DNA from: an uncultured virus (IMG/VR IMGVR_UViG_3300034061_005656)
Lineage: Duplodnaviria > Heunggongvirae > Uroviricota > Caudoviricetes
Virus record (IMG/VR): IMGVR_UViG_3300034061_005656
Length of the DNA: 64,000 bases
Reading direction: 5' to 3' (one strand)
This document shows positions 48,649 to 64,000 of the stretch, piece after piece. Position 1 is the stretch's first letter. Each line of letters begins with the position of its first letter. A program made the translations under genes and the position numbers. The notes beneath the pieces are model-generated. The model ran no database searches, was not told the origin of the DNA, and saw only the letters and a list, made by a program, of their open reading frames with translations.

Positions 48649-48690
48649 AGCTGATATAATGTAACTAACCTCACTACATAAGGAGACACA

Positions 48691-49179
48691 ATGACAGTAG
48701 TAAATAAGCGCACTCGCGTTAACAGCCAAGAAAAGACACGCAACGCAGTCCTTGCGACGCTAAAGCTTTCAGATCAGCCTTTGGTACTTAATGAAGTCCA
48801 AGCTCTTCTCGCAATGCGCGGCGTATCACTTCACGTAACATACGTTAGTGAAATTCTTAAGCAGCTTATTCAAGCCGGCAAAATTTCCCAGCGGAATGAA
48901 ACGCCAGCCGAGCGAGTTGTTCGTTTCGGCAGACACGAGCCACGCGGCGCACATTTTAAAGCAGTGTACTTCTGGGGCGAGCCTGGCAAAGTTCCAGCAC
49001 GCACAAAAGTAAGCAACATACACATGACGGGTCGGATAGCAAAAAAGACACGCAGGCCTGCTAAGGCAGCTCGAGTGCAGACGGGCACTAAAATCACTGC
49101 CCGCGAAAACTTGAGTCTTATGACGCGTGTTGCTGAGCTTGAAGCTCAGATTGCTGAGATGCGCAAAATTATTGGCTAG
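48691..49179 (+). CDS. Winged-helix-like DNA-binding protein
   Basis: 'VLATLK..QPL...EVQ.LL.......TYVSEILKQLIQAGKI'; AAGGAG SD. Confidence 0.55.
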   Translation: MTVVNKRTRVNSQEKTRNAVLATLKLSDQPLVLNEVQALLAMRGVSLHVTYVSEILKQLIQAGKISQRNETPAERVVRFGRHEPRGAHFKAVYFWGEPGKVPARTKVSNIHMTGRIAKKTRRPAKAARVQTGTKITARENLSLMTRVAELEAQIAEMRKIIG

Positions 49180-49282
49180 CGAACGCAGGCCTGCCAGGGA
49201 GCTTCCAAAAGCAGACGGACAGCCTGCTAGGGGGCTCCCTAAAAGCAGACGGGTCGCTCTTGAGTTGTGATAACGTGAACAC

Positions 49283-49546
49283 GTGATTCATCTTGCGCTG
49301 TACGTTGTTGAGGACGTCGAGGACGCTGCGCTCGCAGAGCGAAACGAGATCTTCGAGTTTGTCATTGATGGATCAGAATGCGAAAACTGCGGAATGGTGA
49401 TTGGCCCATCGCTTGATGCATTCTTCCCATGCGTTGTGATCGTTGATACAGACGAAAAACTCGATGTTGATAGCTGGGCAATTTGCCTAGACTGTGCTGC
49501 ACCTTTGATGTATCCCAATGAATGGGTTCTCAACCTCGAGCTGTAG
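49283..49546 (+). CDS. Acidic Zn-finger hypothetical protein
   Basis: CENC...CLDC. Confidence 0.5.
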   Translation: MIHLALYVVEDVEDAALAERNEIFEFVIDGSECENCGMVIGPSLDAFFPCVVIVDTDEKLDVDSWAICLDCAAPLMYPNEWVLNLEL

Positions 49547-49577
49547 AGTACAAAACTAAAGTTGTTATAATGATTCC

Positions 49578-49784
49578 ATGCAGCCAAACATTAATCATCA
49601 CGCCAACATTCATACAACGCTCGTTACACCTGCGAAGTCTTTCACATGTGACATCGAAGGCGAATTCCGAGTAGTCTGCACCTGCGGAGTGCTCGGCAAG
49701 AACGTCGTCTTTGCCAGCAAAGATCTCGCAGAAACTGCGGCGGCACAGCACCGTGAATTCGGTGTAAAACTAAAGTCGTTATAA
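49578..49784 (+). CDS. Cassette gene, leaderless, CxC..H motif
   Basis: ATG 6 nt after TATAAT; runs through the next repeat. Confidence 0.6.
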   Translation: MQPNINHHANIHTTLVTPAKSFTCDIEGEFRVVCTCGVLGKNVVFASKDLAETAAAQHREFGVKLKSL

Positions 49785-49792
49785 TAGCTTCC

Positions 49793-49957
49793 ATGGGACT
49801 TCTCCAAGCATACGCTATCTACAAATACGGCAAAAGCCGGCAGAAGAAGCGTCAACGTTTAGAAGAAGAGTACTGGGAAGAGATCTGCGATCTCTGTGGC
49901 TTCGCTCGTGCACAGCACGCTCGCGACGCTCAAGAGACGTGCCCAACCTACAGCTAA
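49793..49957 (+). CDS. Cassette gene, leaderless, 54 aa
   Basis: MGLLQAYAIYKYGKSRQKKRQRLEEEYWEEICDLCGFARAQHARDAQETCPTYS*; ATG 7 nt after TATAAT. Confidence 0.6.
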   Translation: MGLLQAYAIYKYGKSRQKKRQRLEEEYWEEICDLCGFARAQHARDAQETCPTYS

Positions 49958-50023
49958 AACTAAAGTTGTTATAATGATCTCATGCCGCAAGGCACAACCT
50001 ACAAAAAACGAAAGGACAATCCA

Positions 50024-50431
50024 ATGAGAAAACTCACTACTATCGAGGTGCATGGCGCTAAGATCGAGATCATGCCACGCGTCTACAGCGTTCACGATCG
50101 ACGCTCCGCGTACTCACAAGCTCCACGAATGTACGTCAGCGTTGCAGACGAGACTTTGTTTGACAACCTTGCCAATCGCAAGCGTCGTCCTTATAACGTC
50201 TACAAGACACTGATTCACGCGAGTGGCATCTCTGAGATTCTCGATCTCAGCCGCTTGAGCTGGTCCCAATACGCTGGGTGCACCTGCCCCTGCTCGCCGG
50301 GATTCATTCTCAATCGTCAAACACTCCGGTTCGAAGACGAAGTCTTTTTGAACTTTGATGTTTGGGTGACTCTCGAGTCTGCTCCTTCAGTTGATGAGCG
50401 AAAGGCGCCCCGCGTTCTCGCGGGCGTCTAA
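50024..50431 (+). CDS. Cassette gene, hypothetical ('WSQYAGCTCPCSPGF')
   Basis: GAAAGGAC SD before ATG 50024. Confidence 0.7.
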   Translation: MRKLTTIEVHGAKIEIMPRVYSVHDRRSAYSQAPRMYVSVADETLFDNLANRKRRPYNVYKTLIHASGISEILDLSRLSWSQYAGCTCPCSPGFILNRQTLRFEDEVFLNFDVWVTLESAPSVDERKAPRVLAGV

Positions 50432-50484
50432 GCTCAAAACTAAAGTTTATATAATAATCTCACCAACCTACGAAAGGACATATC

Positions 50485-50712
50485 ATGTCAACAGCAACTT
50501 CAATCGACTCTCACGTCAGAGTCAAGGGCATCACTCCCAATGTGAAAATTATTGACTGGGGCAGTCGCATTACGCTTCGCATCGAAGTCGGCGATGCCAG
50601 CATGACCTGGTACCTCAACCCGCTCACAGACGAAGCAATTGGTGACTACACTCAGCGTGTCATCGACGCGCTCGGTGAAGTCAAAATTGACTTGGCCTCC
50701 GCCGAAAACTAA
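50485..50712 (+). CDS. Cassette gene, hypothetical
   Basis: GAAAGGAC SD; stop codon inside the next repeat. Confidence 0.7.
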   Translation: MSTATSIDSHVRVKGITPNVKIIDWGSRITLRIEVGDASMTWYLNPLTDEAIGDYTQRVIDALGEVKIDLASAEN

Positions 50713-50755
50713 AATTGTTATAATCATTTCACCAACTACAAAAGGACAACCTACA

Positions 50756-51154
50756 ATGTTTCAACACGCAACAATCACACACCGAGATCGCAAAGTCACG
50801 ATGGCGTTCGATGGCCCAGTGCTCCCACAAGAAAAGGACGACATTGACGTCTGGCACGAGCGTGTCAAGGTGTCATGCTCACACAACAAAGACAAGAAAG
50901 TCTACGAGGCGCATGTGTCTTGGTGCAAGGCATCACAACGTAATGGCTTCGCAATGGAGCAGACTGCGATCTTTACTGATCCGCACATTCTGATCTCTCG
51001 TGAGCCTGCGGCTCGCTTCAATGAAAACAAATTTGCAACTTTTTGTGCGCAGGTTCGATTGCTTTGCGCAGCTGCAGCAGCAGATCAGAATAATGTCAGC
51101 GCCGCAGCTGAACTCCTGCGTAAGGCAGAGAGCTACAACCTCGTGAAAAACTAA
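50756..51154 (+). CDS. Cassette gene, hypothetical
   Basis: AAAGGAC SD; stop codon inside the next repeat. Confidence 0.7.
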   Translation: MFQHATITHRDRKVTMAFDGPVLPQEKDDIDVWHERVKVSCSHNKDKKVYEAHVSWCKASQRNGFAMEQTAIFTDPHILISREPAARFNENKFATFCAQVRLLCAAAAADQNNVSAAAELLRKAESYNLVKN

Positions 51155-51188
51155 AGTTGTTATAATAATTCCATAACGAAAGGACAAA

Positions 51189-51455
51189 ATGAGCTATCAA
51201 TTTATTTATGACGAAGAAGCGGTAATCCAAGACGCTGACATCGAAATGGCGCACGCCATCGCGCGAGGCAACTACCTTGCGGCCCTCGAGCGTCGCGGCA
51301 TCTGCGTGCACGATAGCGTCGTGGGCGTTTCCGCCACAGGCGAGATCTTCTACCCTGGACAGGTCGGCCTTGTTGGTGACCAGCAGCGATGCCAGGGCTG
51401 TGGAGTAGTTTTCGAAAGCTTCGAAGACTGGTGCGACACAACCAGGAATCTCTAA
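51189..51455 (+). CDS. Cassette gene, Zn-binding hypothetical
   Basis: GAAAGGAC SD; CxH...CxxC; followed by a hairpin. Confidence 0.7.
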   Translation: MSYQFIYDEEAVIQDADIEMAHAIARGNYLAALERRGICVHDSVVGVSATGEIFYPGQVGLVGDQQRCQGCGVVFESFEDWCDTTRNL

Positions 51456-51552
51456 GCGGTGAGGTCTGCCGGCACCGAAATGGTGTCGGCGTGGCCCGCC
51501 TGAAAACTAAAGTTGTTATAATGATCTTACACCTACTACAAAAGGACAAAAA

Positions 51553-51744
51553 ATGACACACGCACTTGACGAAGTTATCTTCGAAAGCAAACTCACAGTC
51601 GGCGGTCTCGTCGACCTTATCAACTACATGGGCGACGACTCCGAAGACGTCATCATTCCTGAAGACCTTCGCATGATTCTTGAGACACGTCTCTCAAACG
51701 CGGTACTTCAAGAAGTCTCAAGCTTTATCGAAGACTACTTCTAA
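51553..51744 (+). CDS. Cassette gene, acidic hypothetical
   Basis: AAAGGAC SD. Confidence 0.65.
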   Translation: MTHALDEVIFESKLTVGGLVDLINYMGDDSEDVIIPEDLRMILETRLSNAVLQEVSSFIEDYF

Positions 51745-51790
51745 ACTAATACCTAATACACACAAATACGTACAGCAAAAGGACAAAATA

Positions 51791-51955
51791 ATGGAAACAG
51801 CAAATAAAAAATACGTGGTAATTCACCTTCGCATAGACCAACAAATACCAGAAGACAAAGTTGACGAAACTATCAATCAATACATCGACGTACTTTCGCG
51901 CGCCGGTGGCGATTTGACGTGGAACTGTTGTGACTGGGACACGTTCGACGTCTAA
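51791..51955 (+). CDS. Cassette gene, acidic hypothetical
   Basis: AAAGGAC SD before ATG 51791. Confidence 0.6.
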   Translation: METANKKYVVIHLRIDQQIPEDKVDETINQYIDVLSRAGGDLTWNCCDWDTFDV

Positions 51956-52004
51956 AAACTAAAGTTGTTATAATAATCTTACACCCACTACGAAAGGACA
52001 CATC

Positions 52005-52376
52005 ATGGGAGACAGAGCAGTAATCGGATTCCAAAAGAGCAAGGAAGACATTCCAGTCTTTCTTTATGCACACTGGGGCGGCAGCGACAGATACGTCGAT
52101 GCGCAGCGCGCAGTCGAGGCAGCACGTCCTCGCTGGGACGACCCAGCCTACGCAACCCGGATTGGAATCTCGCAAATTGTCGAGAACTACTGGGCTGAGG
52201 AAACTGGGTTCGGAATCAGCGCCGGACACGACTCATTCGCACAGCCAGACTATGACGATGTCATTCTGATTAGCTGGGACGAGCGAGAGGTCTATGTCGT
52301 AAGTGCAGGCGACTCGCAGCACGTCACAGCGACGTTTTCATTCGAGCAGTTTACAACTATGCTCGCGATGAATTGA
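52005..52376 (+). CDS. Cassette gene, conserved phage hypothetical ('MGDRA...LYAHWGG')
   Basis: GAAAGGAC SD. Confidence 0.75.
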   Translation: MGDRAVIGFQKSKEDIPVFLYAHWGGSDRYVDAQRAVEAARPRWDDPAYATRIGISQIVENYWAEETGFGISAGHDSFAQPDYDDVILISWDEREVYVVSAGDSQHVTATFSFEQFTTMLAMN

Positions 52377-52427
52377 AAACTAAAGTTGTTATAATAATCT
52401 TATCAACCTAACCCGAAAGGACACATC

Positions 52428-52751
52428 ATGGCCACCATGACAAAAACCACAACGACAGTTTCAACAGAGACTTTCACCGTACTAGACCCTTCAGCAGAAG
52501 CGCTGATTGCTCAGTTCAATGACGCGAAAGCCGCGATCAAAGCAGCTGAAGCACTGAAGCAAGAAGCTGAAGCCAAGCTTCGTGAAATGCTCGCCGGGCA
52601 AGACGTCGGCGTAATCAATGGCGTCGAGCGCGTAAAAGTTCAGCATCGCAATCTGACCAAGGTCGATCGTGAAATGCTGAAGCTCGCGTTCCCTGAAGCG
52701 CACGAAGCAACGCTAGTCGTCTCGAGTTACACAGTTCTTCAAACGAAGTAA
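52428..52751 (+). CDS. Cassette gene, coiled-coil hypothetical
   Basis: GAAAGGAC SD. Confidence 0.7.
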   Translation: MATMTKTTTTVSTETFTVLDPSAEALIAQFNDAKAAIKAAEALKQEAEAKLREMLAGQDVGVINGVERVKVQHRNLTKVDREMLKLAFPEAHEATLVVSSYTVLQTK

Positions 52752-52764
52752 CTCGAGCAAGAAC

Positions 52765-52912
52765 TGGGTGGCCAGCCCTTGGCCAGGATATTACAAGGGC
52801 TGGCTAGCCGCAGCGGTGCGAGTTGTCTCGCTAAGTAAGGCACCTGCCACGCCAAGAGCATATCCTTCGGGGTCACTGCCAAGTCGCAAGCGCAGATCGT
52901 TAGCAGCCGCTG
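52765..52912 (+). ncRNA. Candidate structured RNA (3' UTR or sRNA)
   Basis: gccagcccttg/caagggctggc stem; loop AGGATAT complementary to ATATCCT at 52860; cagcgg/ccgctg closing stem. Confidence 0.4.
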
Positions 52913-52920
52913 AAACTCGC

Positions 52921-53164
52921 AAAACTAAAGTTGTTATAATGACAACATAACCTACCACAAAGGACAACCTACAAAATGACAAACAAACAAAAAAACTCAT
53001 CATCTTTTGGATTCTCGGTGCATCTCGAGTTTAGAAAAGTTACTGGCTCAGTGACGCGGGTTCGGAGACTTCGTCTCGTGCGCTTTAGCTCACTCAGGTT
53101 GCCAAGACTGCGCGGCTCCAATGCTGCTACCAGTCTTGTGTAGCAAGAATCTAAAACTAAAGTT
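52921..53164 (+). repeat. Cassette A copy 1 (identical to 60468-60711)
   Basis: Base-by-base identity from repeat to repeat; carries a 55-aa ORF 52976..53143. Confidence 0.92.
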
Positions 53165-53207
53165 TGTATAATAGCTACTACCAACCTATAAAAGGACAAC
53201 CTACAAA

Positions 53208-53702
53208 ATGACAACCACAAATTCTTCAACCACAATCGCCGGCAATGCGATTTACCTCGAGCTTGCTAAGCCAAACATAACAACTCAGATGCTTATCATG
53301 CCGGAAGGCACATCGTCTTCTCACAAGACAGTACCAATGACAGTCTATCGTCGCCGAATTACAGCACATGCTCCTCGTAGGACATGGAAAGCTGTAAGTG
53401 CGCCGACCACTGCTCGTCACCTTATTTCTTCAGCTCTTGACACAGAGCCAGCAGTCGCAATAAATGCAGTGCTTACTCCACTTCATCCGCTGTTTCGCTC
53501 AGTCGCGGCTAACGAGTACGTTCTCTGTAGACAACCAATCTACGTAGAAGTCACTCCTGAAGACTTGGAGCTGTGCATTACTGCAAAGACTCCATACAAA
53601 GTTCTCGGAAGAGTGATGAAAGTTCGCAAGTCTCTTGGATTCCCCAAAGAGATTATCCACGAACTATTGCCGCCAACTCCAGCCGCAACTTCAACTTTCT
53701 AA
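53208..53702 (+). CDS. Cassette gene, hypothetical
   Basis: AAAGGAC SD; stop codon inside the next repeat. Confidence 0.7.
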   Translation: MTTTNSSTTIAGNAIYLELAKPNITTQMLIMPEGTSSSHKTVPMTVYRRRITAHAPRRTWKAVSAPTTARHLISSALDTEPAVAINAVLTPLHPLFRSVAANEYVLCRQPIYVEVTPEDLELCITAKTPYKVLGRVMKVRKSLGFPKEIIHELLPPTPAATSTF

Positions 53703-53749
53703 AGTTGTTATAATAATTCCACAACCTACTATAAAAGGACACAAACACA

Positions 53750-54754
53750 ATGTTAGTTAACCAACCTCTCTCCGCTGAAGCAGAAAAGATTCACGCAGGG
53801 CTATCGTCAGTTCTTGCTGACTTCGCTGCTCAATCATTTAGCTCTGAAGCTGCAGATAGAATGAACGCGTTAGTCAGCGATAGCGGGCGCGCAACAGTTC
53901 GTAAAGCAGCAGAAAAGAAAAAGATTGCAATGGTAGAAACAGAAGCTCTTACTGGTGAATCACAATACTCTCGGCCAAATGGCGAAAAGTATTACTCGCG
54001 TGCATGGGGCGAGCACAACGATGTGCAAGTACTTCTCAATGCTCGAAGCATCAATGCGTATGTACTTCTGTACGGTGCGCCTGGCTGCGGAAAGACTGCA
54101 GCTATAGAAGCTGCGTTCGCCGATCAGCCCGGTGGCTTGTACACAGTGCTTGGCTCTGGAGATACTGAAGTATCCGACCTCGTTGGTGGGTACGTCCAGA
54201 CACCCAGTGGTGGATTCCTCTGGGAGGATGGACCTCTTGTCAAGGCAGCTGAAAAAGGCGGAGTGCTTCTCATTGACGAAGTCGGTCTCATCGATCCCAA
54301 GGTTCTGTCAATCGTGTACGGCCTCATGGATGGTCGCCGTGAGTACACAGTCACAGCGAACCCAGAACGCGGAACTGTCAAAGCAGCAGATGGGTTCTAC
54401 GTTATTGCGGCAACGAACCCGAACGCGCCAGGAGTACGCTTATCTGAAGCGTTGCTTTCTCGCTTTGCGATTCACGCTGAAATGACTACAGACTGGGCGC
54501 TGGCTCGCAAGCTTGGCTGCCCAGTCCCTGTTGTTACTGCAGCGCAGAATCTCAGCAAGAAGCAGCAATCTGCAGAAGTGTCCTGGGCGCCACAAATGCG
54601 TGAGCTTCTCGCATTCCGAGATCTTTCCAAGACGTTCGGCACAAAGTTTGCAATCGCAAACCTGCTGGCTGCTGCTCCAGAAATTGATCGGCCGGTCGTG
54701 GCAGATGTCTTCACCCGAGTCTTCGGTGAGGAATGCCGCCCAGCAAAGATCTAA
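53750..54754 (+). CDS. MoxR/CbbQ/NirQ-type AAA+ ATPase
   Basis: Walker A 'GAPGCGKT', 'WEDGPLVKA', Walker B 'LLIDE', 'AATNP', 'LSEALLSRF'. Confidence 0.9.
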   Translation: MLVNQPLSAEAEKIHAGLSSVLADFAAQSFSSEAADRMNALVSDSGRATVRKAAEKKKIAMVETEALTGESQYSRPNGEKYYSRAWGEHNDVQVLLNARSINAYVLLYGAPGCGKTAAIEAAFADQPGGLYTVLGSGDTEVSDLVGGYVQTPSGGFLWEDGPLVKAAEKGGVLLIDEVGLIDPKVLSIVYGLMDGRREYTVTANPERGTVKAADGFYVIAATNPNAPGVRLSEALLSRFAIHAEMTTDWALARKLGCPVPVVTAAQNLSKKQQSAEVSWAPQMRELLAFRDLSKTFGTKFAIANLLAAAPEIDRPVVADVFTRVFGEECRPAKI

Positions 54755-54760
54755 TGGTCT

Positions 54761-54802
54761 GCTCGGGGGTCAGCCTTGTAGGTTGGGCTGGCCCCTTTGA
54801 GC
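54761..54802 (+). terminator. Hairpin whose loop TTGTAGGTTG is the reverse complement of the leader motif CAACCTACAA
   Basis: ggggtcagcc-TTGTAGGTTG-ggctggcccc. Confidence 0.75.
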
Positions 54803-54854
54803 GAAAACTAAAGTTTATATAATGAACCTATACCCACATGAAAGGACAAACGAC

Positions 54855-56660
54855 ATGGGACACATCAAATACAAAAGCGAAACTCGCGCCGAAGCCACAG
54901 ACCCAAGGTGGTATGGAGTTGGCTCGCAGATTGGGCAACTCGTCAACCTGCTCAGCGATCGCTCAGATCTTATTGCGTACGTCGGCCCAGGTGCCGGCGG
55001 TGCAGCACCAGCGTGCTACACTCCTGCTACAGCAGAAGTTGAAATCAACGTTGACGTCGCTTTCGGCAAGAACGTCAACCCAGTAGATATTGGCGACATC
55101 CGCGAGCGTGACACTCAGTTTATGTGGCCAAAAGCAACTGGAGCTATTTTCCATGAAGCACTTCATGCTCGCTACTCTACGTGGAACATTGCAAAAGCTG
55201 CAGATGAACTCGAGCAAGACGAATTCATGGCTTTGATTCTTCTTGAGGAAGGACGCATTGAAGCGTTCGGCGTTGGTCAGTTCCCAGAAAATTCTGGGTT
55301 TCTTCGCGCTGCTGCTCTCGAGATTGTGCTCGCAGATCTTTCAGAAGAATTTCTGACAGAGTCAGACACACAAATGGCAGCTCGTCTTGCGGCACTTACG
55401 CTTGCTCGAGTGGATGCCGGCAGTCTTGAAGACAGCGACTGCGCTTCTCTCGCTGAAACAGTCGAGAACAAGCTCGGTACAGAAAGACTAGAAGCGCTTC
55501 GTCAGATTTGGCTTGCGGTGCAAATGCACAGCAATCACTATGATGTTTCAGCTCTGTACCCACTTGCTCGCGAATGGGCGCGCATTGTAAAAGATGCAGC
55601 AGAAGAGAATGGCGATGCACAGCAAGGCGAAGGCGAGCCCGGTGGCATGTCAACACCTGGTGGCTCATCAGGCGGCCCAAGCGAGTTCATGAAAGACTTG
55701 CTTGACGCTCTTGAAGAAGCAGCAGGCAACGCAGTGATTGGAGCGTTCGACCAACTTAGCGAGCAGCAAGAAATTGAACAGTGGACTAAGGAAGCGAAAG
55801 ATCGTGCAAGCGAAGCAAGACAAGAACAAGAGCACAAAGAAGTAGCAAGCGACGTTTTTGGCAAAGGCACTGGGCCAATGCCTGAAACTGACACACGCTC
55901 TACTAAAATTGTTTCTCGAGATGCAACGCCGGCTGAACGATCTGCAGCAGTCAAGATCGCGCAGATGCTCGACAAAGCAAAGTATCGCGAGCGCGACGAA
56001 ATTGACATCAAGTCAGTTTTGCCGCCGGGACGCTTACGCACTCGTGCAGTCATGCAAGGCGCAGCTCTCAAGTCAAAAGGTGTTATGACCCAGACAGAGC
56101 CGTGGCGTCGCACAGTGCGCAAGCACACTGACGACCCAACGCTCAGCATTGGCGTCATGGTGGACATTAGCGGATCAATGGGCGAAGCGATGGAGCCAAT
56201 GGCAACGACAGCGTGGGTCATGAGCGAAGCGGTGCGACGCATTCAAGGGCGTGCCGCAATGGTGTACTACGGTCAAGATGTTTTCCCAACATTGAAGCCT
56301 GGTCAGCACTTGACGCAAGTCGATGTCTACACAGCGCCTGACGGAACTGAAAAGTTCAACAAGGCGTTCATGGCGCTTAACGGTGGCATGAATCTGCTGC
56401 ACGGCAGCGGTGCACGGTTGCTTGTCGTCGTGAGCGACGGGTGCTACACAAGCGCCGAACGAATTGCGGCGAAGCGATGGGTTGCTGAATGCTCGCGCAA
56501 CGGCGTCGGTGTGCTATGGCTTACCTTTGACAACGGGTCGGATGTCAAGTCAATTACGAACGGCACCAATGCGGTTGTGTTGACGGGTCTGTCCAGTCCA
56601 GAGCTTGTAGCAATGGAGATCGGTTCGTCGGCCGCACGGGCGCTCTCAGTCGCTCAATAA
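54855..56660 (+). CDS. VWA-domain protein (CobT-like partner of the AAA ATPase) with N-terminal HExxH motif
   Basis: 'FHEALH', 'LEEGRIE', MIDAS 'DISGSM', 'VVSDG'; GAAAGGAC SD before ATG 54855. Confidence 0.85.
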   Translation: MGHIKYKSETRAEATDPRWYGVGSQIGQLVNLLSDRSDLIAYVGPGAGGAAPACYTPATAEVEINVDVAFGKNVNPVDIGDIRERDTQFMWPKATGAIFHEALHARYSTWNIAKAADELEQDEFMALILLEEGRIEAFGVGQFPENSGFLRAAALEIVLADLSEEFLTESDTQMAARLAALTLARVDAGSLEDSDCASLAETVENKLGTERLEALRQIWLAVQMHSNHYDVSALYPLAREWARIVKDAAEENGDAQQGEGEPGGMSTPGGSSGGPSEFMKDLLDALEEAAGNAVIGAFDQLSEQQEIEQWTKEAKDRASEARQEQEHKEVASDVFGKGTGPMPETDTRSTKIVSRDATPAERSAAVKIAQMLDKAKYRERDEIDIKSVLPPGRLRTRAVMQGAALKSKGVMTQTEPWRRTVRKHTDDPTLSIGVMVDISGSMGEAMEPMATTAWVMSEAVRRIQGRAAMVYYGQDVFPTLKPGQHLTQVDVYTAPDGTEKFNKAFMALNGGMNLLHGSGARLLVVVSDGCYTSAERIAAKRWVAECSRNGVGVLWLTFDNGSDVKSITNGTNAVVLTGLSSPELVAMEIGSSAARALSVAQ

Positions 56661-56664
56661 AATC

Positions 56665-56713
56665 TTACTCCCGGGACAGCGTGTTACTTGTCCTTTCCGC
56701 GTCCCGGGAGTAA
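56665..56713 (+). terminator. 13-bp perfect hairpin whose loop contains ACTTGTCCTTTC, the reverse complement of the cassette SD GAAAGGACAA(GT)
   Basis: ttactcccgggac-a-gcg-TGTTACTTGTCCTTTC-cgc-gtcccgggagtaa. Confidence 0.8.
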
Positions 56714-56865
56714 CCTTCTCAAAGACTTCAGGCCTGCCCTAGGAGTACGTATGCAGACGGACATGCTTTTCAGCGTCAGGCCTGCCATAGGGCCAGACAT
56801 GCAGACGGGCACGCTTTCTAAAGATTGTATAATAGAATTACAACCACAAACACAGGGGAGACACG

Positions 56866-57081
56866 ATGGCAGCAAGACCAACGATCGACGATGCAGTAAA
56901 CGCGCTACAGCAGATCGCAGAACTCGTACTTGAGCTCGGAATCGACGAAGTAGCGAAGCAGGCGAATCTAAAACCAAGACAAGTTCGCAAGTTCGTGAAC
57001 GATGTGCTCACGTCTAAAAACTCTGAGATTCGACTAATCTCAGCAGCAGTCGCTTCTATGAAGGAGCTGAACAAAAACTAA
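56866..57081 (+). CDS. Small HTH (XRE-like) protein
   Basis: 'GIDEVAKQANLKPRQVRKF'; GGGGAG SD; stop codon inside the next repeat. Confidence 0.6.
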   Translation: MAARPTIDDAVNALQQIAELVLELGIDEVAKQANLKPRQVRKFVNDVLTSKNSEIRLISAAVASMKELNKN

Positions 57082-57125
57082 AATTGTTATAATAGTCTCA
57101 GCAGCCCATGACGAAAGGACACATA

Positions 57126-57296
57126 ATGGACAAGCCAAACATCACATCCACCTATATTCATCACGCAGATTTTGATGAGCCAGTTCCCTTGAATTACAGA
57201 GACCCGATCCATTACGCGATCAGCGTGCTCTGCCTTGAAGGCAAGGCTCCAGAGTTCAAGATTCTGGTGGGCCCCCAAGTCGTGCTCCCGCGCTAA
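57126..57296 (+). CDS. Cassette gene, hypothetical
   Basis: GAAAGGAC SD; hairpin over the stop. Confidence 0.6.
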   Translation: MDKPNITSTYIHHADFDEPVPLNYRDPIHYAISVLCLEGKAPEFKILVGPQVVLPR

Positions 57297-57330
57297 GCGG
57301 GGCACAGCCCAAAACTAAAATTGTTATAAT

Positions 57331-57431
57331 GATCTCACCAGCCAGCCACAAGGGCAGGCCCTAATAAATAGCCGTGAGAGGGCGCTCGGCGGACCTGACC
57401 TAAGGTCCAAACAAAATGCCCAATGGAATCA
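57331..57431 (+). ncRNA. ORF-less cassette: candidate structured small RNA
   Basis: Flanked by two repeats, no SD or ORF above 10 codons; stems gggca/tgccc, gccg/cggc, gag/ctc, ggacc/ggtcc. Confidence 0.5.
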
Positions 57432-57832
57432 AAAACTAAAGATGTTATAATGAATTTATCAGCCACGATGGCTGGTAACGACGAAAGGACAAGTCAACAT
57501 GAACAAGAAATGGTCACTCCTCAAGAGCAGCGACATCGGCCCAATGGGACGCGGTCAGAATGGCAAGAAAAAGGTGTACGAAGTCACCCTTGATGGCCAA
57601 ACAGTCACCTTCGAATGGGGTATGGCTGAGATGACCCGCCGTCAGCGCCAGGTTCGCACCTTCAGCACCTCACAGGCCGCCATCAACGCGGCTTACGAAA
57701 AAGTGGGCGCAAAGCTGGATCGCGGATACTCGGTCGCCTACGCGGTCTAAGCGGTCAAGGAGCCGGGCCGGCGAGAGCCGGACCCGGCCCCGCCACTCCG
57801 CAAAACTAAAGATGTTATAATGATCTTGTACG
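57425..57832 (+). repeat. Cassette B copy 1 (identical to 60948-61355)
   Basis: 408 bp identical, spanning two repeats. Confidence 0.92.
57499..57750 (+). CDS. WGR-domain-like protein, copy 1
   Basis: 'KVYEV.LDG..V..EWG......Q..TFST.QAA..A...K..KLDRGY'. Confidence 0.7.
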   Translation: MNKKWSLLKSSDIGPMGRGQNGKKKVYEVTLDGQTVTFEWGMAEMTRRQRQVRTFSTSQAAINAAYEKVGAKLDRGYSVAYAV

Positions 57833-57851
57833 CATGACGAAAGGACAAAAT

Positions 57852-58133
57852 ATGCACACTACAGAAACACACGCCGTGGAGTTCTTGGTAACAGATTCAA
57901 TCTGCTACGAAGTAATTCGCCAAACAAACAAAACAATCTCACTGAGAAAATGTTTAAGCGGTGAAAAGGTCAGCGGAGAGTGGCCAGTGGTCTACTCAGC
58001 AGCGGTGAGCAACCCAGAAGGAGAAACCATTACATTGCGACTTCGCAAGGATGGGACCTTCCGCAGAGCAAACTGGGCGAATCCAATGCGCTTCACAAGC
58101 CAGCCAGCCTTCCGCACTGACTACGCCTTCTAA
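57852..58133 (+). CDS. Cassette gene, hypothetical
   Basis: GAAAGGAC SD; hairpin over the stop. Confidence 0.65.
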   Translation: MHTTETHAVEFLVTDSICYEVIRQTNKTISLRKCLSGEKVSGEWPVVYSAAVSNPEGETITLRLRKDGTFRRANWANPMRFTSQPAFRTDYAF

Positions 58134-58224
58134 GGCGTAGCCGGTGGCGGCCGGCGGTGCCGGCAGGAAAACTAAAATTGTTATAATGATTCCATGCCCA
58201 CAAGGGCGAAACGAAAGGACAAAA

Positions 58225-58530
58225 ATGAAGAACGTAACGACTACATGGAAAGCTTTCGGAAAGCCAACGTACTCGGTCATCATGATTGAAAACGACATGA
58301 CAGACCTCGAGATCTGCGAAGAGCTTTTCAAAGCGACCAACATCTACTCTGGCTGGCTGTGGGACGCACTCCAGTACGACATCCCTGCGGATCGCACGCA
58401 CACAGCGTTGTCTGTTGGCGATGAGATCAGCGTCGATGGCACGGTGTATCGCTGCGCCCCAGTCGGCTGGGAAGTTGTCGCAAAGTACGAAGTTGACAAC
58501 TTCGCTCTGTCGGAGAAAGACTTCCGATAG
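58225..58530 (+). CDS. Cassette gene, hypothetical ('ALSVGDEISVDG..YRC...GW')
   Basis: GAAAGGAC SD. Confidence 0.7.
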   Translation: MKNVTTTWKAFGKPTYSVIMIENDMTDLEICEELFKATNIYSGWLWDALQYDIPADRTHTALSVGDEISVDGTVYRCAPVGWEVVAKYEVDNFALSEKDFR

Positions 58531-58572
58531 AAACTAAAGTTGTTATAATAGTAAGTAACGAAAGGACAAAAA

Positions 58573-58821
58573 ATGAAAACAATTGAAGAAATGACAGTCG
58601 AAATGGAGCCGCGGCTCAATCGCGGTGGAATAAAAGTTCTCACTGTGAAAGCTCTCCTAGAAATTCTTATGGAGTGTGACCCAGAAGATGACGTGGTGAT
58701 CGGTGCTCACGCGGTTGGACTCGAGTGGCTAAATGTCTCCTCGGTGACTCTCCCTGATGGAGATGAGTACATCGCTCTCACTCTCAATGTCGAAGACACT
58801 TTCGACCACTGCCAATTCTAA
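58573..58821 (+). CDS. Cassette gene, acidic hypothetical
   Basis: GAAAGGAC SD. Confidence 0.65.
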   Translation: MKTIEEMTVEMEPRLNRGGIKVLTVKALLEILMECDPEDDVVIGAHAVGLEWLNVSSVTLPDGDEYIALTLNVEDTFDHCQF

Positions 58822-58873
58822 AAACTAAAATTGTTATAATAATCTTATCAACCTACAACAAAGGACACAAACA

Positions 58874-59107
58874 ATGAACTCAACAATCCACATCCCAGGA
58901 CGACTCACTGCAAAAATTAGCAATGGAAGAATTATTGGATATGTCTTTGATATTGCGGCAAATGACGCCGGATACTTTGGAGACGCTTTCAATCTTATTG
59001 AAGGTGACGAAATGACAGCAAATGAGTTCTCAGACTTAGTTACGGGTTCACTCATGTTTACTCAAGATCGCAAGTCCGCGTTCTTCTCGGTTGAGCTGGG
59101 CGCATAG
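58874..59107 (+). CDS. Cassette gene, hypothetical
   Basis: CAACCTACAA + AAAGGAC leader. Confidence 0.65.
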   Translation: MNSTIHIPGRLTAKISNGRIIGYVFDIAANDAGYFGDAFNLIEGDEMTANEFSDLVTGSLMFTQDRKSAFFSVELGA

Positions 59108-59165
59108 CTTCTAAAAACTAAAATTGTTATAATAATCTTACCAACCTACAACAAAGGACAACCCA

Positions 59166-59348
59166 ATGACACCTACAAAAGAACACAAGGCAATCGTGAA
59201 TGACATCATCGCATTCGCGAGCGACTTCCCACGCGAGATTGTGGATGAGGTAATTTCAGACTACATCCAGATGCTCAAGGACGCCGATGGGCTGAGCAAC
59301 CTCGATGTGGACGTCATCATCAGCATGCTCTGGGCGCGCGGATACTAA
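59166..59348 (+). CDS. Cassette gene, hypothetical (paralog of 61368..61547)
   Basis: CAACCTACAA + AAAGGAC leader. Confidence 0.65.
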   Translation: MTPTKEHKAIVNDIIAFASDFPREIVDEVISDYIQMLKDADGLSNLDVDVIISMLWARGY

Positions 59349-59393
59349 ACTAAAGTTGTTATAATAACATTGTCAATTACGAAAGGACACACA

Positions 59394-59795
59394 ATGACAG
59401 TAGATAGAGAGACGCTTCGCGCAATCGCGGACGAACTGACGCCCATCATCGAGGCAACGCTAAAACGACATGGTCTTGACACTCCCAAAATGCAGTGGAA
59501 GTATGGCGCAATGCTCGAGCTCAAGGCGACTGCGGCCGCGTTGAGCGAAGGCCCCAATGGAATCAACCTCGGCTCAAGAGAAGCTCAGTACTACACTCGC
59601 TTCGGCTTTCCCGGTCTTGACGCAAAACTTGGTACAGTGTTTAGCGTCAAAGGTGAAGAGTTTGCGTTCGCGGGAATTGCTGCATCACGCAGGAAGTACC
59701 CAATTTACGCTAAAAACATTGAAACCGGAGCTTACATTTTCTACACGGAAATGGTGATTCCTACAATCAACGCTGCCGCAAAAGCGGCAGTGTAA
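59394..59795 (+). CDS. Cassette gene, hypothetical ('RRKYPI')
   Basis: GAAAGGAC SD. Confidence 0.7.
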   Translation: MTVDRETLRAIADELTPIIEATLKRHGLDTPKMQWKYGAMLELKATAAALSEGPNGINLGSREAQYYTRFGFPGLDAKLGTVFSVKGEEFAFAGIAASRRKYPIYAKNIETGAYIFYTEMVIPTINAAAKAAV

Positions 59796-59804
59796 GGAGC
59801 GGTC

Positions 59805-60020
59805 ATGGGAAATGAAAAAACAATTGACACTTGCTGCGATTTAGTGCAAGATGACCAAGTTGAGTACGCGGTTGACTCGCTCGGTGAAATAGCGAAAATC
59901 CTCAGCCTGGCTGAGAACGCAGACAGCGTGACGGACATGCGTGGGCTCATTGCGGTAGCAATATTCAAGTCAAGCGAAGCCCGGTCACGGATCAAAAAGA
60001 TGAGCGAAATGCGTTTCTAA
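59805..60020 (+). CDS. Hypothetical protein
   Basis: AAGGAG SD, co-transcribed. Confidence 0.6.
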   Translation: MGNEKTIDTCCDLVQDDQVEYAVDSLGEIAKILSLAENADSVTDMRGLIAVAIFKSSEARSRIKKMSEMRF

Positions 60021-60259
60021 TGAGTCTTGCACACGGATCGAAGAAAGAGTCTCTCGCGAAGACCGCAACCTGGTATCTAAGCGATTTGTTGCTGACGGGC
60101 GTCATAGCGTTCGCTGTAACTCGAGACGTTTCAACTTCTTTGATAATTGCCGGCTTGCAGCAGACGTGGGAAGTTTTGCTCTATTACTTTCACGAAAGAG
60201 TCTGGGTCAAACTTCAGGCCCGCCGTGGGGCAGAAAATGCAGACGGGTCGGCTTTTTAG
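60020..60259 (+). CDS. DUF2061-like small membrane protein
   Basis: 'SLAKTATW...LYYFHERVW'. Confidence 0.7.
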   Translation: MSLAHGSKKESLAKTATWYLSDLLLTGVIAFAVTRDVSTSLIIAGLQQTWEVLLYYFHERVWVKLQARRGAENADGSAF

Positions 60260-60467
60260 CTTCAGGCCTGCCATAGGCCTGCAAGTGCAGACGGGTGCCA
60301 CTTTCATCCACTGAGGTTCTGAGCATGTTCAGAACCTGAAGTAGGCAGTAAATACCACAAAAGCCTCTTACAAGCTCCTGAGGTCTCAAAAAGCCGGTTT
60401 TTTGTCTAAAAACTAAAATTTATATAATGACGACATGACAAACGACATGACATGCCCAAAGGAACTG

Positions 60468-60711
60468 AAAACTAAAGTTGTTATAATGACAACATAACCT
60501 ACCACAAAGGACAACCTACAAAATGACAAACAAACAAAAAAACTCATCATCTTTTGGATTCTCGGTGCATCTCGAGTTTAGAAAAGTTACTGGCTCAGTG
60601 ACGCGGGTTCGGAGACTTCGTCTCGTGCGCTTTAGCTCACTCAGGTTGCCAAGACTGCGCGGCTCCAATGCTGCTACCAGTCTTGTGTAGCAAGAATCTA
60701 AAACTAAAGTT
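60468..60711 (+). repeat. Cassette A copy 2
   Basis: Identical to 52921-53164. Confidence 0.92.
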
Positions 60712-60761
60712 GTTATAATGTATTTATCAGCGACCCGCTGGTACCGACGAAAGGACAAAAC

Positions 60762-60926
60762 ATGCTCGGTGGAAAGCCATCAACACGACTTCACGAGGTC
60801 ATCGACACATCGTACCAATACACGATGATTGTTCACACAGGCTCAAAGAGCGCCTGTAACGCCTACTGGCTGAATCAGCCGGCCAAAAAGCGTCAAGACC
60901 TCGAGGTTCGAGTCGCCAAGCGCTAA
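60762..60926 (+). CDS. Cassette gene, 54 aa
   Basis: GAAAGGAC SD; MLGGKPSTRLHEVID...VRVAKR*. Confidence 0.6.
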   Translation: MLGGKPSTRLHEVIDTSYQYTMIVHTGSKSACNAYWLNQPAKKRQDLEVRVAKR

Positions 60927-60947
60927 CGCGCTTGGGGCTCCGGCCCC

Positions 60948-61355
60948 GGAATCAAAAACTAAAGATGTTATAATGAATTTATCAGCCACGATGGCTGGTA
61001 ACGACGAAAGGACAAGTCAACATGAACAAGAAATGGTCACTCCTCAAGAGCAGCGACATCGGCCCAATGGGACGCGGTCAGAATGGCAAGAAAAAGGTGT
61101 ACGAAGTCACCCTTGATGGCCAAACAGTCACCTTCGAATGGGGTATGGCTGAGATGACCCGCCGTCAGCGCCAGGTTCGCACCTTCAGCACCTCACAGGC
61201 CGCCATCAACGCGGCTTACGAAAAAGTGGGCGCAAAGCTGGATCGCGGATACTCGGTCGCCTACGCGGTCTAAGCGGTCAAGGAGCCGGGCCGGCGAGAG
61301 CCGGACCCGGCCCCGCCACTCCGCAAAACTAAAGATGTTATAATGATCTTGTACG
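60948..61355 (+). repeat. Cassette B copy 2
   Basis: Identical to 57425-57832. Confidence 0.92.
61022..61273 (+). CDS. WGR-domain-like protein, copy 2
   Basis: Identical to 57499..57750. Confidence 0.7.
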   Translation: MNKKWSLLKSSDIGPMGRGQNGKKKVYEVTLDGQTVTFEWGMAEMTRRQRQVRTFSTSQAAINAAYEKVGAKLDRGYSVAYAV

Positions 61356-61367
61356 GAAGGACACGAA

Positions 61368-61547
61368 ATGAAAACACAGAAGCAAATACAGCAGATCGCC
61401 AAGGACATCTTCGCGGACGCGAGTGAATACCCAGCGGACGTGCGGGACGAGGTTCTCGACGAGCTAATCAACATCTGGCTCCTCGATGAGGACCTCAGTG
61501 CCGGCGAGAAAAGCCAACTGATCATTGCGGTGTCGGCCCGCCGCTAG
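61368..61547 (+). CDS. Cassette gene, 59 aa (paralog of 59166..59348)
   Basis: AAGGAC SD; MKTQKQIQQIAKDIFADASEYPADVRDEVLDELI... Confidence 0.6.
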   Translation: MKTQKQIQQIAKDIFADASEYPADVRDEVLDELINIWLLDEDLSAGEKSQLIIAVSARR

Positions 61548-61594
61548 CGTGCCAGCACCTCGGTGCTGAAAACTAAAATTGTTATAATGTACTC

Positions 61595-61753
61595 ATGGCG
61601 AGTAACAAGAAATCAAAAACAGTGGTGAAGTGGTCAGACGAAGACCATCAAGCTTTTGCGGATCGTAACATCCTCCGCGCTCAGACGATTCCAAATAAAA
61701 AAAGAATCGCGAGTCGCAAGGCGTGTCGCGGTCGAGCGCGAGGAGAGTGGTAG
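61595..61753 (+). CDS. Cassette gene, leaderless basic 52-aa protein
   Basis: MASNKKSKTVVKWSDEDHQAFADRNILRAQTIPNKKRIASRKACRGRARGEW*; paralog at 63883. Confidence 0.7.
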   Translation: MASNKKSKTVVKWSDEDHQAFADRNILRAQTIPNKKRIASRKACRGRARGEW

Positions 61754-61816
61754 TCGCGGTGCCGGCTTGAATGTGCGGCGTAGCCTGCAGAAAACTAAAG
61801 TTGTTATAATGTATTT

Positions 61817-62029
61817 ATGAGCACCGACCAAATCACCACCAAACTTAACATCGACCTTAAATCCGGCTACTACCTCGCCGACCGATTTACTGCCGATACA
61901 AAACTCGCAATTATCGAACACGACTCGTACATGCGCCTTCTTGCCGTTCTTACGCCTGACCAGCACGCCCACCTTCTCGATCTTGCCAAAAACGACCAAT
62001 TCCACGCGATTTCCGGTCACGCTATCTAG
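61817..62029 (+). CDS. Cassette gene, leaderless
   Basis: ATG 6 nt after TATAAT. Confidence 0.6.
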   Translation: MSTDQITTKLNIDLKSGYYLADRFTADTKLAIIEHDSYMRLLAVLTPDQHAHLLDLAKNDQFHAISGHAI

Positions 62030-62094
62030 CCGGCCTCAATAAACATAAAACTAAAATTGTTATAATGATCTTATCAGGAAGGGATAAAATAAAA

Positions 62095-62352
62095 ATGGAA
62101 AAAGAGATAGTTAAATTCGAAGTCGACGTGGCGTTCGATGACGAAAGTTTTGAAGAAGTATTAGAGCGTTTGGGTAGAGAAGTCCCGAATGCGTTTTTGA
62201 GAATCGTGCGGCTAGTGGGATCTGGCGGTGGATGGCCAACTATCGAAGTGATGATTCCAAAAAACGAAATTCGTAAATTTGCGGAATGGTATTGCAAAGA
62301 CGATGCGGACGAGTTGGAAATCGGATTCTTGGAAGATGCGGTCGCCTTATAG
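62095..62352 (+). CDS. Cassette gene, acidic hypothetical ('GSGGGWP')
   Basis: AAGGGA SD before ATG 62095. Confidence 0.65.
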   Translation: MEKEIVKFEVDVAFDDESFEEVLERLGREVPNAFLRIVRLVGSGGGWPTIEVMIPKNEIRKFAEWYCKDDADELEIGFLEDAVAL

Positions 62353-62419
62353 GCGGCTTCATCTTCGGATCGGTAAAAACTAAAATTGTTATAATGTATT
62401 TATCAGGAAGGAATGAAAA

Positions 62420-62593
62420 ATGAGCAAGATGACAGCAGCGGAGCGAAAAGAAGCGAAAGAGTGGGGTGAGGCGTCAGAGCGGATCAGAACCCGCGAAGGT
62501 TGGAAAACCTATCAAAACGCACGTCTTGCCGGCTCCAGCCATTACGACGCGCTCGATCTCGCATTTCAAGCCGACATCATAGTGCCGGCTTGA
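62420..62593 (+). CDS. Cassette gene, 57 aa
   Basis: AAGGA SD; MSKMTAAERKEAKEWGE...DIIVPA*. Confidence 0.55.
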   Translation: MSKMTAAERKEAKEWGEASERIRTREGWKTYQNARLAGSSHYDALDLAFQADIIVPA

Positions 62594-62663
62594 AATAAAA
62601 ACTAAAATTGTTATAATGTATTTATCAGCCGCGGTGGCTGGTACAAAAAGAAAAAAGGACAAA

Positions 62664-62957
62664 ATGAACAAAATCACTTTTATGCAGGCAGTCGAATTGA
62701 TCGATATCGCGGCTCAAGAAAATCGCTTGTGGCACTACAATGGCGGATCAGGTTACGTCCGCGTGAGTGACTCATCGAACGTTTTGATGGTCATCGAGCA
62801 CGCTTCGTCGCAAGGTGCGAGCGTTACACTGCACGATGGCACTGAGTACTTCAAGGCGTACAATGGCACGCAGTTTGCGCAGTCAGAGGCGCATCGCAAT
62901 CGCGAGTCTCTCGTCGAGTTTTTCTCAACGCGGTTCGTCAACCCTGTGCTGCTATAA
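62664..62957 (+). CDS. Cassette gene, hypothetical
   Basis: AAAGGAC SD; stop overlaps the next repeat. Confidence 0.65.
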   Translation: MNKITFMQAVELIDIAAQENRLWHYNGGSGYVRVSDSSNVLMVIEHASSQGASVTLHDGTEYFKAYNGTQFAQSEAHRNRESLVEFFSTRFVNPVLL

Positions 62958-63008
62958 AACTAAAATTGTTATAATGTTTTTATCAGCTACAAATACAAAG
63001 GACACACA

Positions 63009-63317
63009 ATGAATGCAACAATTTCTGACGAACAACTAGCAGTGCGAGATGCGGTCACCGAGCTCATCAGCTTCATGGACTCAAAGACAAGCCTAGGCAC
63101 TTACAGACTCGATGGTGGTCGCAAGTACCTTCGCATCGTAAGCACGCTAAGCGTTCACTGCTTCGTGGAGGCTCGTACGGGCGACGTGTACATGGCAGCT
63201 TCATTTGCGAAGCCAATGCTCAATGGCGCACGCTACAATCTCCTGGACGCGGACTCATTCGAAAAGCTGAAAAGCGAGTGGGACGAGTTCGGCAGCTACC
63301 TCTACAAAAAGAAGTAG
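63009..63317 (+). CDS. Cassette gene, conserved phage hypothetical ('GRKYLRIV..SVHCFV...TGDVYMAAS..KP')
   Basis: AAAGGAC SD; motif recalled from small genes of large phages. Confidence 0.7.
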   Translation: MNATISDEQLAVRDAVTELISFMDSKTSLGTYRLDGGRKYLRIVSTLSVHCFVEARTGDVYMAASFAKPMLNGARYNLLDADSFEKLKSEWDEFGSYLYKKK

Positions 63318-63325
63318 CGCAAGAC

Positions 63326-63400
63326 CTAGACGATTCGTCGTCGTCTAGTGAGGTGCTTGAGCGCTGGGTTCTCCCCTTTCGTCCCCAGCGCTCGCACCTC
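63326..63400 (+). terminator. Two hairpins with loops complementary to ACGACGAA and GACGAAAGG leaders
   Basis: ctagacga-TTCGTCG-tcgtctag; gaggtgc-tt-gagcgctggg-TTCTCCCCTTTCGTC-cccagcgctc-gcacctc. Confidence 0.7.
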
Positions 63401-63444
63401 TTCAATCTTTTTCAGCAAAAACTAAAATTGTTATAATGGTATTC

Positions 63445-63804
63445 ATGAACACCATCACACTCAAAACCGAAACCCAAACCGAACTTATCTTCGAATTCAC
63501 ATTCGACTACGAATACGCGCTCACCACGCCCTTCGGCATCGACGAGCCATCCGACGTCCTCTCGTTCTTCTTCGACGACGACACACATCAAACTGTCACC
63601 TACGACCTCACCATTTTCACTGACCCTAACGATTACTACTTCGCGACCGGTCTCACCGAAAACGGCTACGGCTCCGACTGCTCCGACTACGACAGCATCG
63701 ACGACATCGCATACACCTTCGGCCACCCGATTATCGACATCGTCACTGCCGAACTTACGCGCCGCAACTTGCCGCTCGTCGCATCGCGCAACTGGCCTTC
63801 ATAA
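63445..63804 (+). CDS. Cassette gene, leaderless acidic protein
   Basis: ATG 7 nt after TATAAT; strongly C-ending codons. Confidence 0.65.
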   Translation: MNTITLKTETQTELIFEFTFDYEYALTTPFGIDEPSDVLSFFFDDDTHQTVTYDLTIFTDPNDYYFATGLTENGYGSDCSDYDSIDDIAYTFGHPIIDIVTAELTRRNLPLVASRNWPS

Positions 63805-63882
63805 ACACGCCGCTCTGCCGGCTGGCCTCGCGCCAGCCGGTCACAGCTCAACCCGCAAAACTAAAATTGTTATAATGTTCTT

Positions 63883-64000
63883 ATGAGCACGAACACCAAA
63901 AAACAAAAAACAAAAAACACATGGTCCGCCGCCGATCATCAGGCTTTCGCCGATCGCAACATTCTTCGGGCCCAAACAATTCCGAACAAAAAACGCATCG
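63883..64000 (+). CDS. Cassette gene, leaderless, partial; paralog of 61595..61753
   Basis: MSTNTKKQKTKNTWSAADHQAFADRNILRAQTIPNKKRI... Confidence 0.7.
   Translation, partial: MSTNTKKQKTKNTWSAADHQAFADRNILRAQTIPNKKRI

Follow-up and report, generated by a model that had tools for sequence, protein, structure and literature searches.

Hairpin loops behind the AAA and VWA genes of an uncultured Caudoviricetes virus complement and co-vary with the leaders of their own genes

Direct pairing of a bacterial message's 5' end with its 3' end is known for a few genes, chromosomal or plasmid-borne, and in the papers that describe it both the choice between cis and trans action and the timing relative to coupled translation are unsettled. 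As a kind, pairing between the 5' and 3' untranslated regions (UTRs) is already known from icaR, hbs, hok, and aapA; the Staphylococcus aureus mRNA icaR, as described in the available part of its report, has a long 3' UTR with ~40 nucleotides (nt) of complementarity and is subject to RNase III cleavage (PMC3868564). Here, three hairpin elements, (i), (ii), and (iii), were analyzed in a stretch of 64,000 nt (the window, whose coordinates are used throughout) from the uncultured Caudoviricetes virus IMGVR_UViG_3300034061_005656, the genome of which is a single contig of 139 kb that holds the window. Hairpins (i) and (ii) are conserved 3' elements of the U-AAA gene pair and of the VWA gene, respectively, with loops that co-vary with their own leader and likely pair with it once the message is complete, a pairing that would reduce further ribosome loading. 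The loops complement their own leaders, the covariation is gene-specific, the loops are exposed in predicted folds, and folding is biased toward the + strand. The genes, leaders, and hairpins concerned, and the array that supplies the leaders, are as follows:

53153..53207, + strand: early promoter and leader of gene U; CAACCTACAA at 53197-53206, between the Shine-Dalgarno sequence (SD) and the start codon, with a 10-nt match to loop (i)
53208..53702, + strand: gene U, 164 amino acids (aa), without a Pfam or PHROG family; upstream of AAA in 38/38 lineages
53697..53749, + strand: AAA promoter and leader; -10 hexamer at 53709-53714 and tag CAACCTAC at 53722-53729, where the message is predicted to begin
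53750..54754, + strand: AAA gene, a MoxR/CobS-like AAA+ ATPase of 334 aa (Pfam AAA_5, PHROG 249)
54766..54795, + strand: hairpin (i), 10-base-pair (bp) stem; loop 54776-54785 complements the AAA tag (8 nt) and the U tag (10 nt)
54804..54854, + strand: VWA promoter and leader; SD tag GAAAGGACAA at 54840-54849
54855..56660, + strand: VWA gene, a VWA_CoxE-like protein of 601 aa with an HExxH motif (HEALH)
56665..56713, + strand: hairpin (ii), 13-bp stem and 23-nt loop; the anti-SD at 56688-56697 complements the VWA leader over 10 nt
48641..63876, + strand: early-promoter array, 35 copies of one early promoter within the window, ahead of single-gene cassettes with homogenized leaders

A first-pass annotation made from the sequence had described the loops as antisense copies of cassette leader words, and all 20 of the word positions that it cited are exact (seven for CAACCTACAA, nine for GAAAGGACAA, and four for GACGAAAGG). 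The hairpins fold as it described, including the 13-bp stem of (ii), with z-scores of -4.95 (i), -5.64 (ii), and -5.96 (iii) against 200 shuffles each. Genome-wide, the forward/reverse counts are 7/1 for CAACCTACAA (reverse copy at 54776), 10/1 for GAAAGGACAA (56688), 8/1 for GACGAAAGG (63375), and 9/5 for ACGACGAA; the reverse complements of the first three words are each present as a single copy in 139 kb, inside these hairpin loops. Loop (i) is G/U-rich and targets a non-SD tag, while (ii) and the second hairpin of element (iii), (iii-b), expose C/U-rich anti-SD loops. Comparison of each loop with 40 leaders and 1000 loop shuffles (the leader at 62095 is empty after trimming) bore out the enrichment of (i) and (ii) (P for the best match, 0.008 and 0.001), though it was only marginal for the two hairpins of (iii) (iii-a, 0.048; iii-b, 0.096, with a mean-match P of 0.026). 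Nine other hairpin loops of the region gave no enrichment (P for the best match, 0.2–1.0), so most hairpins of the region are without an anti-leader loop. In the genome just past the window, the hairpin loop at 64576-64585 complements the leader of the cassette that follows (64664) over 7–8 nt, no more than chance would give (P 0.53).

Relatives provide evidence for the cognate assignment. A search with the AAA protein gave 70 loci (numbered with the prefix L) and, together with the window and L001, 38 lineages, five truncated loci being skipped; L060, in which AAA and VWA abut, was dropped, DSL-LC01 was added as L072, four start codons were corrected by eye, and the 3' stretch of L029 was taken from behind an inserted open reading frame (ORF). 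In most lineages a hairpin lies directly behind AAA and behind VWA, with unrelated stems and related loops. Scored by the longest stretch over which a 40-nt leader and the 3' region (≤80 nt) are perfectly complementary, the AAA 3' region matches its own AAA leader over a mean of 7.74 nt, compared with 5.55 nt for the AAA leaders of other phages and 5.50 nt for the VWA leader of the same phage, and the VWA 3' region matches its own leader over 8.76 nt, compared with 6.22 nt for those of other phages and 6.66 nt for its own AAA leader. Neither own-leader diagonal was reached by any of 20000 permutations, and control scores (sense, reversed, and complement-only) ranged from 4.6 to 6.1. The effect of kinship was limited by a swap test on 19 disjoint nearest pairs of the VWA tree (paired greedily, not all strict sisters), in which the own leader won over the swapped one 14:0 for AAA and 11:0 for VWA; covariation of loop and leader, proposed earlier as a check, is thus present in relatives and is cognate. 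The crossed combinations, each loop with its neighbor's leader, gave 7:9 and 8:2 for the same pairs. With the U leader, the ratio was 15:1 for the AAA 3' region and 6:4 for the VWA 3' region. The U and AAA leaders have a common tag (11.2 nt), and this tag, the constant position of U ahead of AAA, and the 15:1 covariation together indicate that hairpin (i) serves the U-AAA pair.

Ranked among the leaders of its phage, the own leader stands at percentile 0.855 for AAA and 0.871 for VWA across 37 lineages, while 494 other genes with 3' space (genes from a simple in-house caller) stand at 0.498, and only 14 of them match over at least 8 nt; a general rule of own-leader tails for all cassettes was consequently rejected. 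Amongst 26 protein families each present in at least eight lineages, the VWA loop ranks the VWA leader at 0.87 and the next family at 0.71, and the AAA loop ranks the AAA leader at 0.86, followed by U and the 50024 family at 0.77 each. No conserved non-cognate target of (ii) emerged from these families, as none other exceeded 0.71. The 12-nt match of (ii) to the leader of the WGR cassette, singled out by the first-pass annotation, is real in this genome but not conserved (percentile 0.63 across 12 lineages, compared with 0.87 for the VWA leader itself), and the WGR cassette was rejected as a conserved special target.

The loops do not simply track the prevailing SD of each phage. Among 13 hand-picked lineages, the VWA loop follows the minority SD in L020 (14 leaders with CGAAAGG and three with CGGAAGG), L026 (9 vs 1), and L036 (7 vs 2), and follows private SD variants in L013 (found in 0/40 other leaders), L003 (0/22), L033 (0/38), and L034 (0/37); the loop of L072 matches an upstream part of the VWA leader, not the SD variant. 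This preference for minority or private SDs over the phage-wide word is the main evidence against a global shut-off by (i) and (ii). The stem of hairpin (i) has double-sided changes in 8/11 pairs. For hairpin (ii), alignment with MAFFT and RNAalifold gave only four pairs because the stems do not align in register, and its stem covariation rests on single folds.

Two side observations concern such hairpins in relatives. In L029, an ORF of ~190 codons with a homing-type look is inserted between the AAA stop codon and the hairpin, and the AAA 3' end is apparently repeated behind it with the hairpin kept. A nearly identical loop, TTCTTCGTCGTT, sits in unrelated stems after AAA in L020, L039 (in tandem), and L045 and after a RecE-like gene in L072.

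Several features speak for complementarity at the RNA level. Predicted folds leave the leader-matched bases unpaired (0.67 and 0.79, vs 0.35 and 0.41). Folding is more stable on the + strand than on the other strand in 31/38 lineages for AAA and 26/38 for VWA, with more G-U pairs (95 vs 29 and 98 vs 82, respectively). The predicted net pairing energies in this genome, after opening costs, are -6.4 kcal/mol (i) and -9.9 kcal/mol (ii), and in the fold of the full AAA message the tag and the loop are both mostly open. The VWA match spans the SD in 22/32 lineages. The AAA match begins 6–9 nt past the -10 box, at the predicted 5' end, in 11/29 lineages and spans the SD in 9/29, mostly lineages in which AAA has no promoter of its own and in which the complement often starts ≤4 nt from the stop codon. 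Altogether, the loops appear to be selected for complementarity to leaders, single-stranded in predicted folds, and favored in the RNA sense, as the earlier description would have it. Promoter position and gene order predict that leader and 3' hairpin are carried on one transcript.

In the mechanism that these features suggest, a GC-rich stem would present 7–13 unpaired bases for pairing between the loop and a single strand. The pairing would cover the SD of VWA, while that of AAA would cover the predicted first bases of the message, likely a standby site, or often the SD where AAA lacks its own promoter. As the loop is made last, ribosomes could load freely on the nascent message and later be shut out, and the outcome would be a short, capped burst of the ATPase/VWA module from a very strong promoter. 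The loop may find its partner on its own molecule or on a second copy of that message. The icaR and type I toxin messages serve as the analogy for repression that would set in after the message is complete. The module itself, a MoxR-type ATPase, a VWA/HExxH partner, and a small protein without a recognized fold, may, as a guess, need fixed ratios or do harm in excess. The predicted fold of gene U (pLDDT 87.8) has a best Z of 5.4, with WGR-domain rows at Z 4.2–5.0 and no clear match, and no Foldseek match at E ≤ 0.001; a sequence search with the VWA protein found no solved relative.

A number of observations weigh against a cognate interaction. By duplex energy, the own leader ranks 9/40 for (i) and 5/40 for (ii) in this genome, where 10/40 leaders match loop (i) and 31/40 match loop (ii) over at least 7 nt. 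Across the lineages, the own leader is strictly top in only 4/37 cases for AAA and 9/37 for VWA (top or tied in 17 and 21), and no 7-nt match occurs in 9/38 AAA and 6/38 VWA regions. The VWA 3' region likewise exceeds the raw permutation null against the AAA leader (p 1e-4), and the 50024 family and U are about equal in their match to the AAA loop. U-tracts are rare at the hairpins (2/24 and 1/32), so that the ends of the messages at these positions are presumed, and a terminator scan included none of the three hairpins among its matches. When the full AAA message is folded as a nested structure, the pairing does not form (P 0.03); as a pseudoknot, it would lie outside the reach of the folding program. 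Further, the direction of the effect, repression, is proposed by analogy only, and cognate pairing does not account for element (iii) in this genome (5 nt). With leaders homogenized, cross-talk in trans could physically take place even where selection is on the cognate pair; the matches of (i) and (ii) to other cassettes are best read as largely by-products of the shared leaders.

The first-pass annotation had favored such action in trans, with stable 3' hairpin RNAs pairing with many cassette leaders and shutting off SD-led cassettes together. The breadth of the matches given above is in its favor, yet gene-specific covariation, the standing of the own leader within each phage, and the private SD variants argue otherwise, and the VWA loop matches downstream and upstream leaders equally and at background (6.63 vs 6.67). 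As an account of the whole set we regard it as unlikely; it is unlikely and unsupported for (i) and (ii) and plausible for (iii), which comprises the following features:

63009..63317, + strand: DUF7717 gene, ahead of element (iii); just 5 nt of its leader match the element
63326..63348, + strand: hairpin (iii-a), with the loop TTCGTCG; L007, L009, and L178 have a first hairpin like it
63350..63400, + strand: hairpin (iii-b), one of a portable family; basal stem bulged and conserved, loop with the invariant anti-SD core CCTTTC at 63375-63380

The (iii-b) family has 12 distinct variants, seven of which built the model (R1) used to filter pattern-search matches, mostly chance ones. The variants have a basal stem with a two-base bulge, the CCTTTC core in the loop, and a variable inner stem with double-sided changes in 6/14 pairs, and they follow at least five unrelated kinds of genes (families partly judged by eye from translations). 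This spread behind unrelated genes, together with the sequence-conserved basal stem and the invariant core, is what a trans-acting element might look like. Against this, (iii-b) usually complements the leader of the preceding gene over 8–10 nt (11/13 rows with well-called genes, near-duplicates included), though the word concerned is the phage-wide SD. The own-leader match is poor here (5 nt) and in L177, and the best partners in this genome are the eight GACGAAAGG leaders. DUF7717 homologs in six other loci are without element (iii). In L007, a promoter-like site without an ORF stands ~60 nt ahead of the double hairpin, the one hint of a discrete RNA. In L178, the element lies directly behind a structured stretch homologous to window 52752-52920, and the two are joined at the very CGCAAGACCTA word with which (iii) begins in this genome, a junction suggestive of relocation by shuffling. 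We take (iii) as likely to be an anti-SD hairpin of a separate, portable kind that was moved behind DUF7717 by cassette shuffling and acts on GACGAAAGG-type leaders or is now idle; an orphaned cis element and a portable trans-acting one are the candidate forms. A more speculative and rather unlikely extension is a two-tier RNA timer, in which private loop-leader pairing would give U-AAA and VWA one burst of translation each, while the portable, sometimes separately transcribed (iii) RNA would accumulate and act in trans to silence entire classes of SD-led messages, early or host, with leaderless ones spared; the (iii) core also complements the common actinobacterial SD.

The main alternative to repression by (i) and (ii), by likeness to hbs, is an effect on stability. 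Cognate pairing could have an opposite or different outcome, with the message closed into a loop that keeps RNases off the 5' end or returns terminating ribosomes to the start and so raises output. The AAA loop aims at the predicted first message bases instead of the SD in the 11 of 29 lineages mentioned, and the anti-SD starts 1–4 nt past the stop codon in several lineages, where a terminating ribosome would melt it. In the accessible account of hbs, the interaction modulates RNase cleavage and does not block the SD (PMC5737220). However, the VWA pairing mostly spans the SD, and such pairing inhibits initiation in icaR and type I toxin mRNAs, which leaves an increase in output doubtful and repression the preferred outcome.

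An origin at the DNA level without RNA function, as inverted cassette remnants, recurrent template-switch copies of leaders, or recombination sites, is very improbable. The region does reshuffle, with exact duplications of 232 and 384 bp, and its promoter-plus-stem-loop layout is PeSL-like, but no inverted promoter is present (all 51 motif matches are on the + strand), the matches are short loop cores within unrelated stems, the feature is confined to two core genes, and the strand biases in fold stability and G-U pairs weigh against it. A reading of the loops as ribosome-binding sites of minus-strand genes is largely refuted and was rejected, as 5/9 SD-like AAA matches do have a minus-strand start 3–13 nt downstream but these TTG starts come from the conserved final codons of AAA and open ORFs of 11–91 aa, any start is found in only 3/27 VWA matches and in none in the window, and the minus strand carries no copy of the promoter.

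The setting of these elements is an array driven by one repeated promoter. The motif, ending in TATAAT, occurs in 35 copies in the window vs 0.06 expected, and a looser genome-wide scan gave 51 matches, 49 of them within 48.6–74.0 kb. Most copies lead to one small gene, its leader short and A/C-rich and its SD of the GAAAGG type, and a stem-loop adjoins the promoter in some cassettes only. Exact promoter-to-promoter duplications are present (52921-53152 = 60468-60699 and 57432-57815 = 60955-61338), and at 57311-57431 and 60409-60467 promoter copies have no SD-led ORF behind them and may give short RNAs. An operator-like motif, AGGCCTGC-N-CAGACGG, occurs in six copies (48352, 49054, 49187, 56730, 56778, and 60264), mostly intergenic and directly ahead of promoters, two of them ahead of a small gene at 56866-57081, and is also present in L007, L022, L024, and L074. 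The ORF-less, structured stretch at 52752-52920, behind a RecE-like gene, is a candidate undescribed RNA, and its motif GCGGTG-hairpin-CTAAG-AGG ... GCCGC recurs in L022, L083, L144, and L178. Rfam gave seven weak matches over 48000-64000, all far under the gathering score and none for 52752-52920. Tandem 8-bp repeats of ACGTCTAC lie at either end of the contig (window coordinates -61991 and 76948). The VWA protein of the window shares 56% identity with a protein from Actinomycetia phage DSL-LC01 and 32–37% with Microbacterium phage proteins; DSL-LC01 is an assembly from a lake metagenome with Actinomycetia as the predicted host, according to the available text of PMC10611076.

Only bacterial examples of 5'-3' message pairing were found, and no paper on such pairing in phages, an absence that is weakly tested as subscription journals lay outside the search. 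The pairing proposed here would illustrate a way for a phage to run all of its early genes off one strong promoter while still metering single products, and would give a portable module of 40–50 nt for tuning expression in actinobacteria. Amongst the precedents that the first-pass annotation had cited, 3'-to-5' fold-back fits (i) and (ii) better than RNAIII and RsaE do. The latter, as far as the consulted part of PMC3868564 describes them, seed unpaired C/U-rich loops on SDs and are the best analogy for (iii), but act in trans on many host mRNAs, whereas (i) and (ii) co-vary with the cognate leader. The PeSL cassettes of T4-type phages resemble the array in having a repeated early promoter and an adjoining GC-rich stem-loop between shuffled single-gene cassettes (PMC2839356, PMC4122927); in the text available they are described as terminator or recombination elements and not in terms of loop-leader pairing (the word 'complementary' is absent from that of PMC2839356), and the host and phage group differ. 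In the type I toxin mRNAs hok and aapA, a 3' anti-SD closes on the SD after transcription, which is similar, but these encode a small toxin with an antisense antitoxin, form an extended end-to-end helix, and are activated by 3' trimming (from the accessible portion of PMC6733600), whereas the phage ORFs are 1–1.8 kb. The type I hallmark of a small toxin ORF with a cis antisense RNA is absent, the ORFs encoding 334 and 601 aa and no copy of the phage promoter lying on the minus strand.

Two features of the icaR and hbs type are found here, namely a 3' segment that complements its own 5' leader and compensatory changes, the latter as natural covariation only. Like the phage elements, the hbs mRNA of Bacillus subtilis pairs its UTRs beside a 3' terminal hairpin, aims at the leader upstream of the coding start, and sets a precedent for an effect on stability, but it is chromosomal and forms a 14-bp linear duplex upstream of the terminator, while the phage seed is presented in a loop (per the part of PMC5737220 available). 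In icaR, the 3' UTR carries a C/U-rich motif that pairs with the same message's SD region, and this pairing may form in cis or from message to message, as may the pairing proposed here (PMC3868564, in its available part). Compared with that description, the phage elements differ in that a core of 7–13 nt sits in a short GC-rich hairpin loop just past the stop codon and co-varies over 38 lineages, and in that the AAA pairing is often at the 5' end of the message rather than at the SD. Pairing of this kind would here be a family-wide, compact, loop-presented device of uncultured actinobacterial phages, documented by dozens of natural compensatory pairs.

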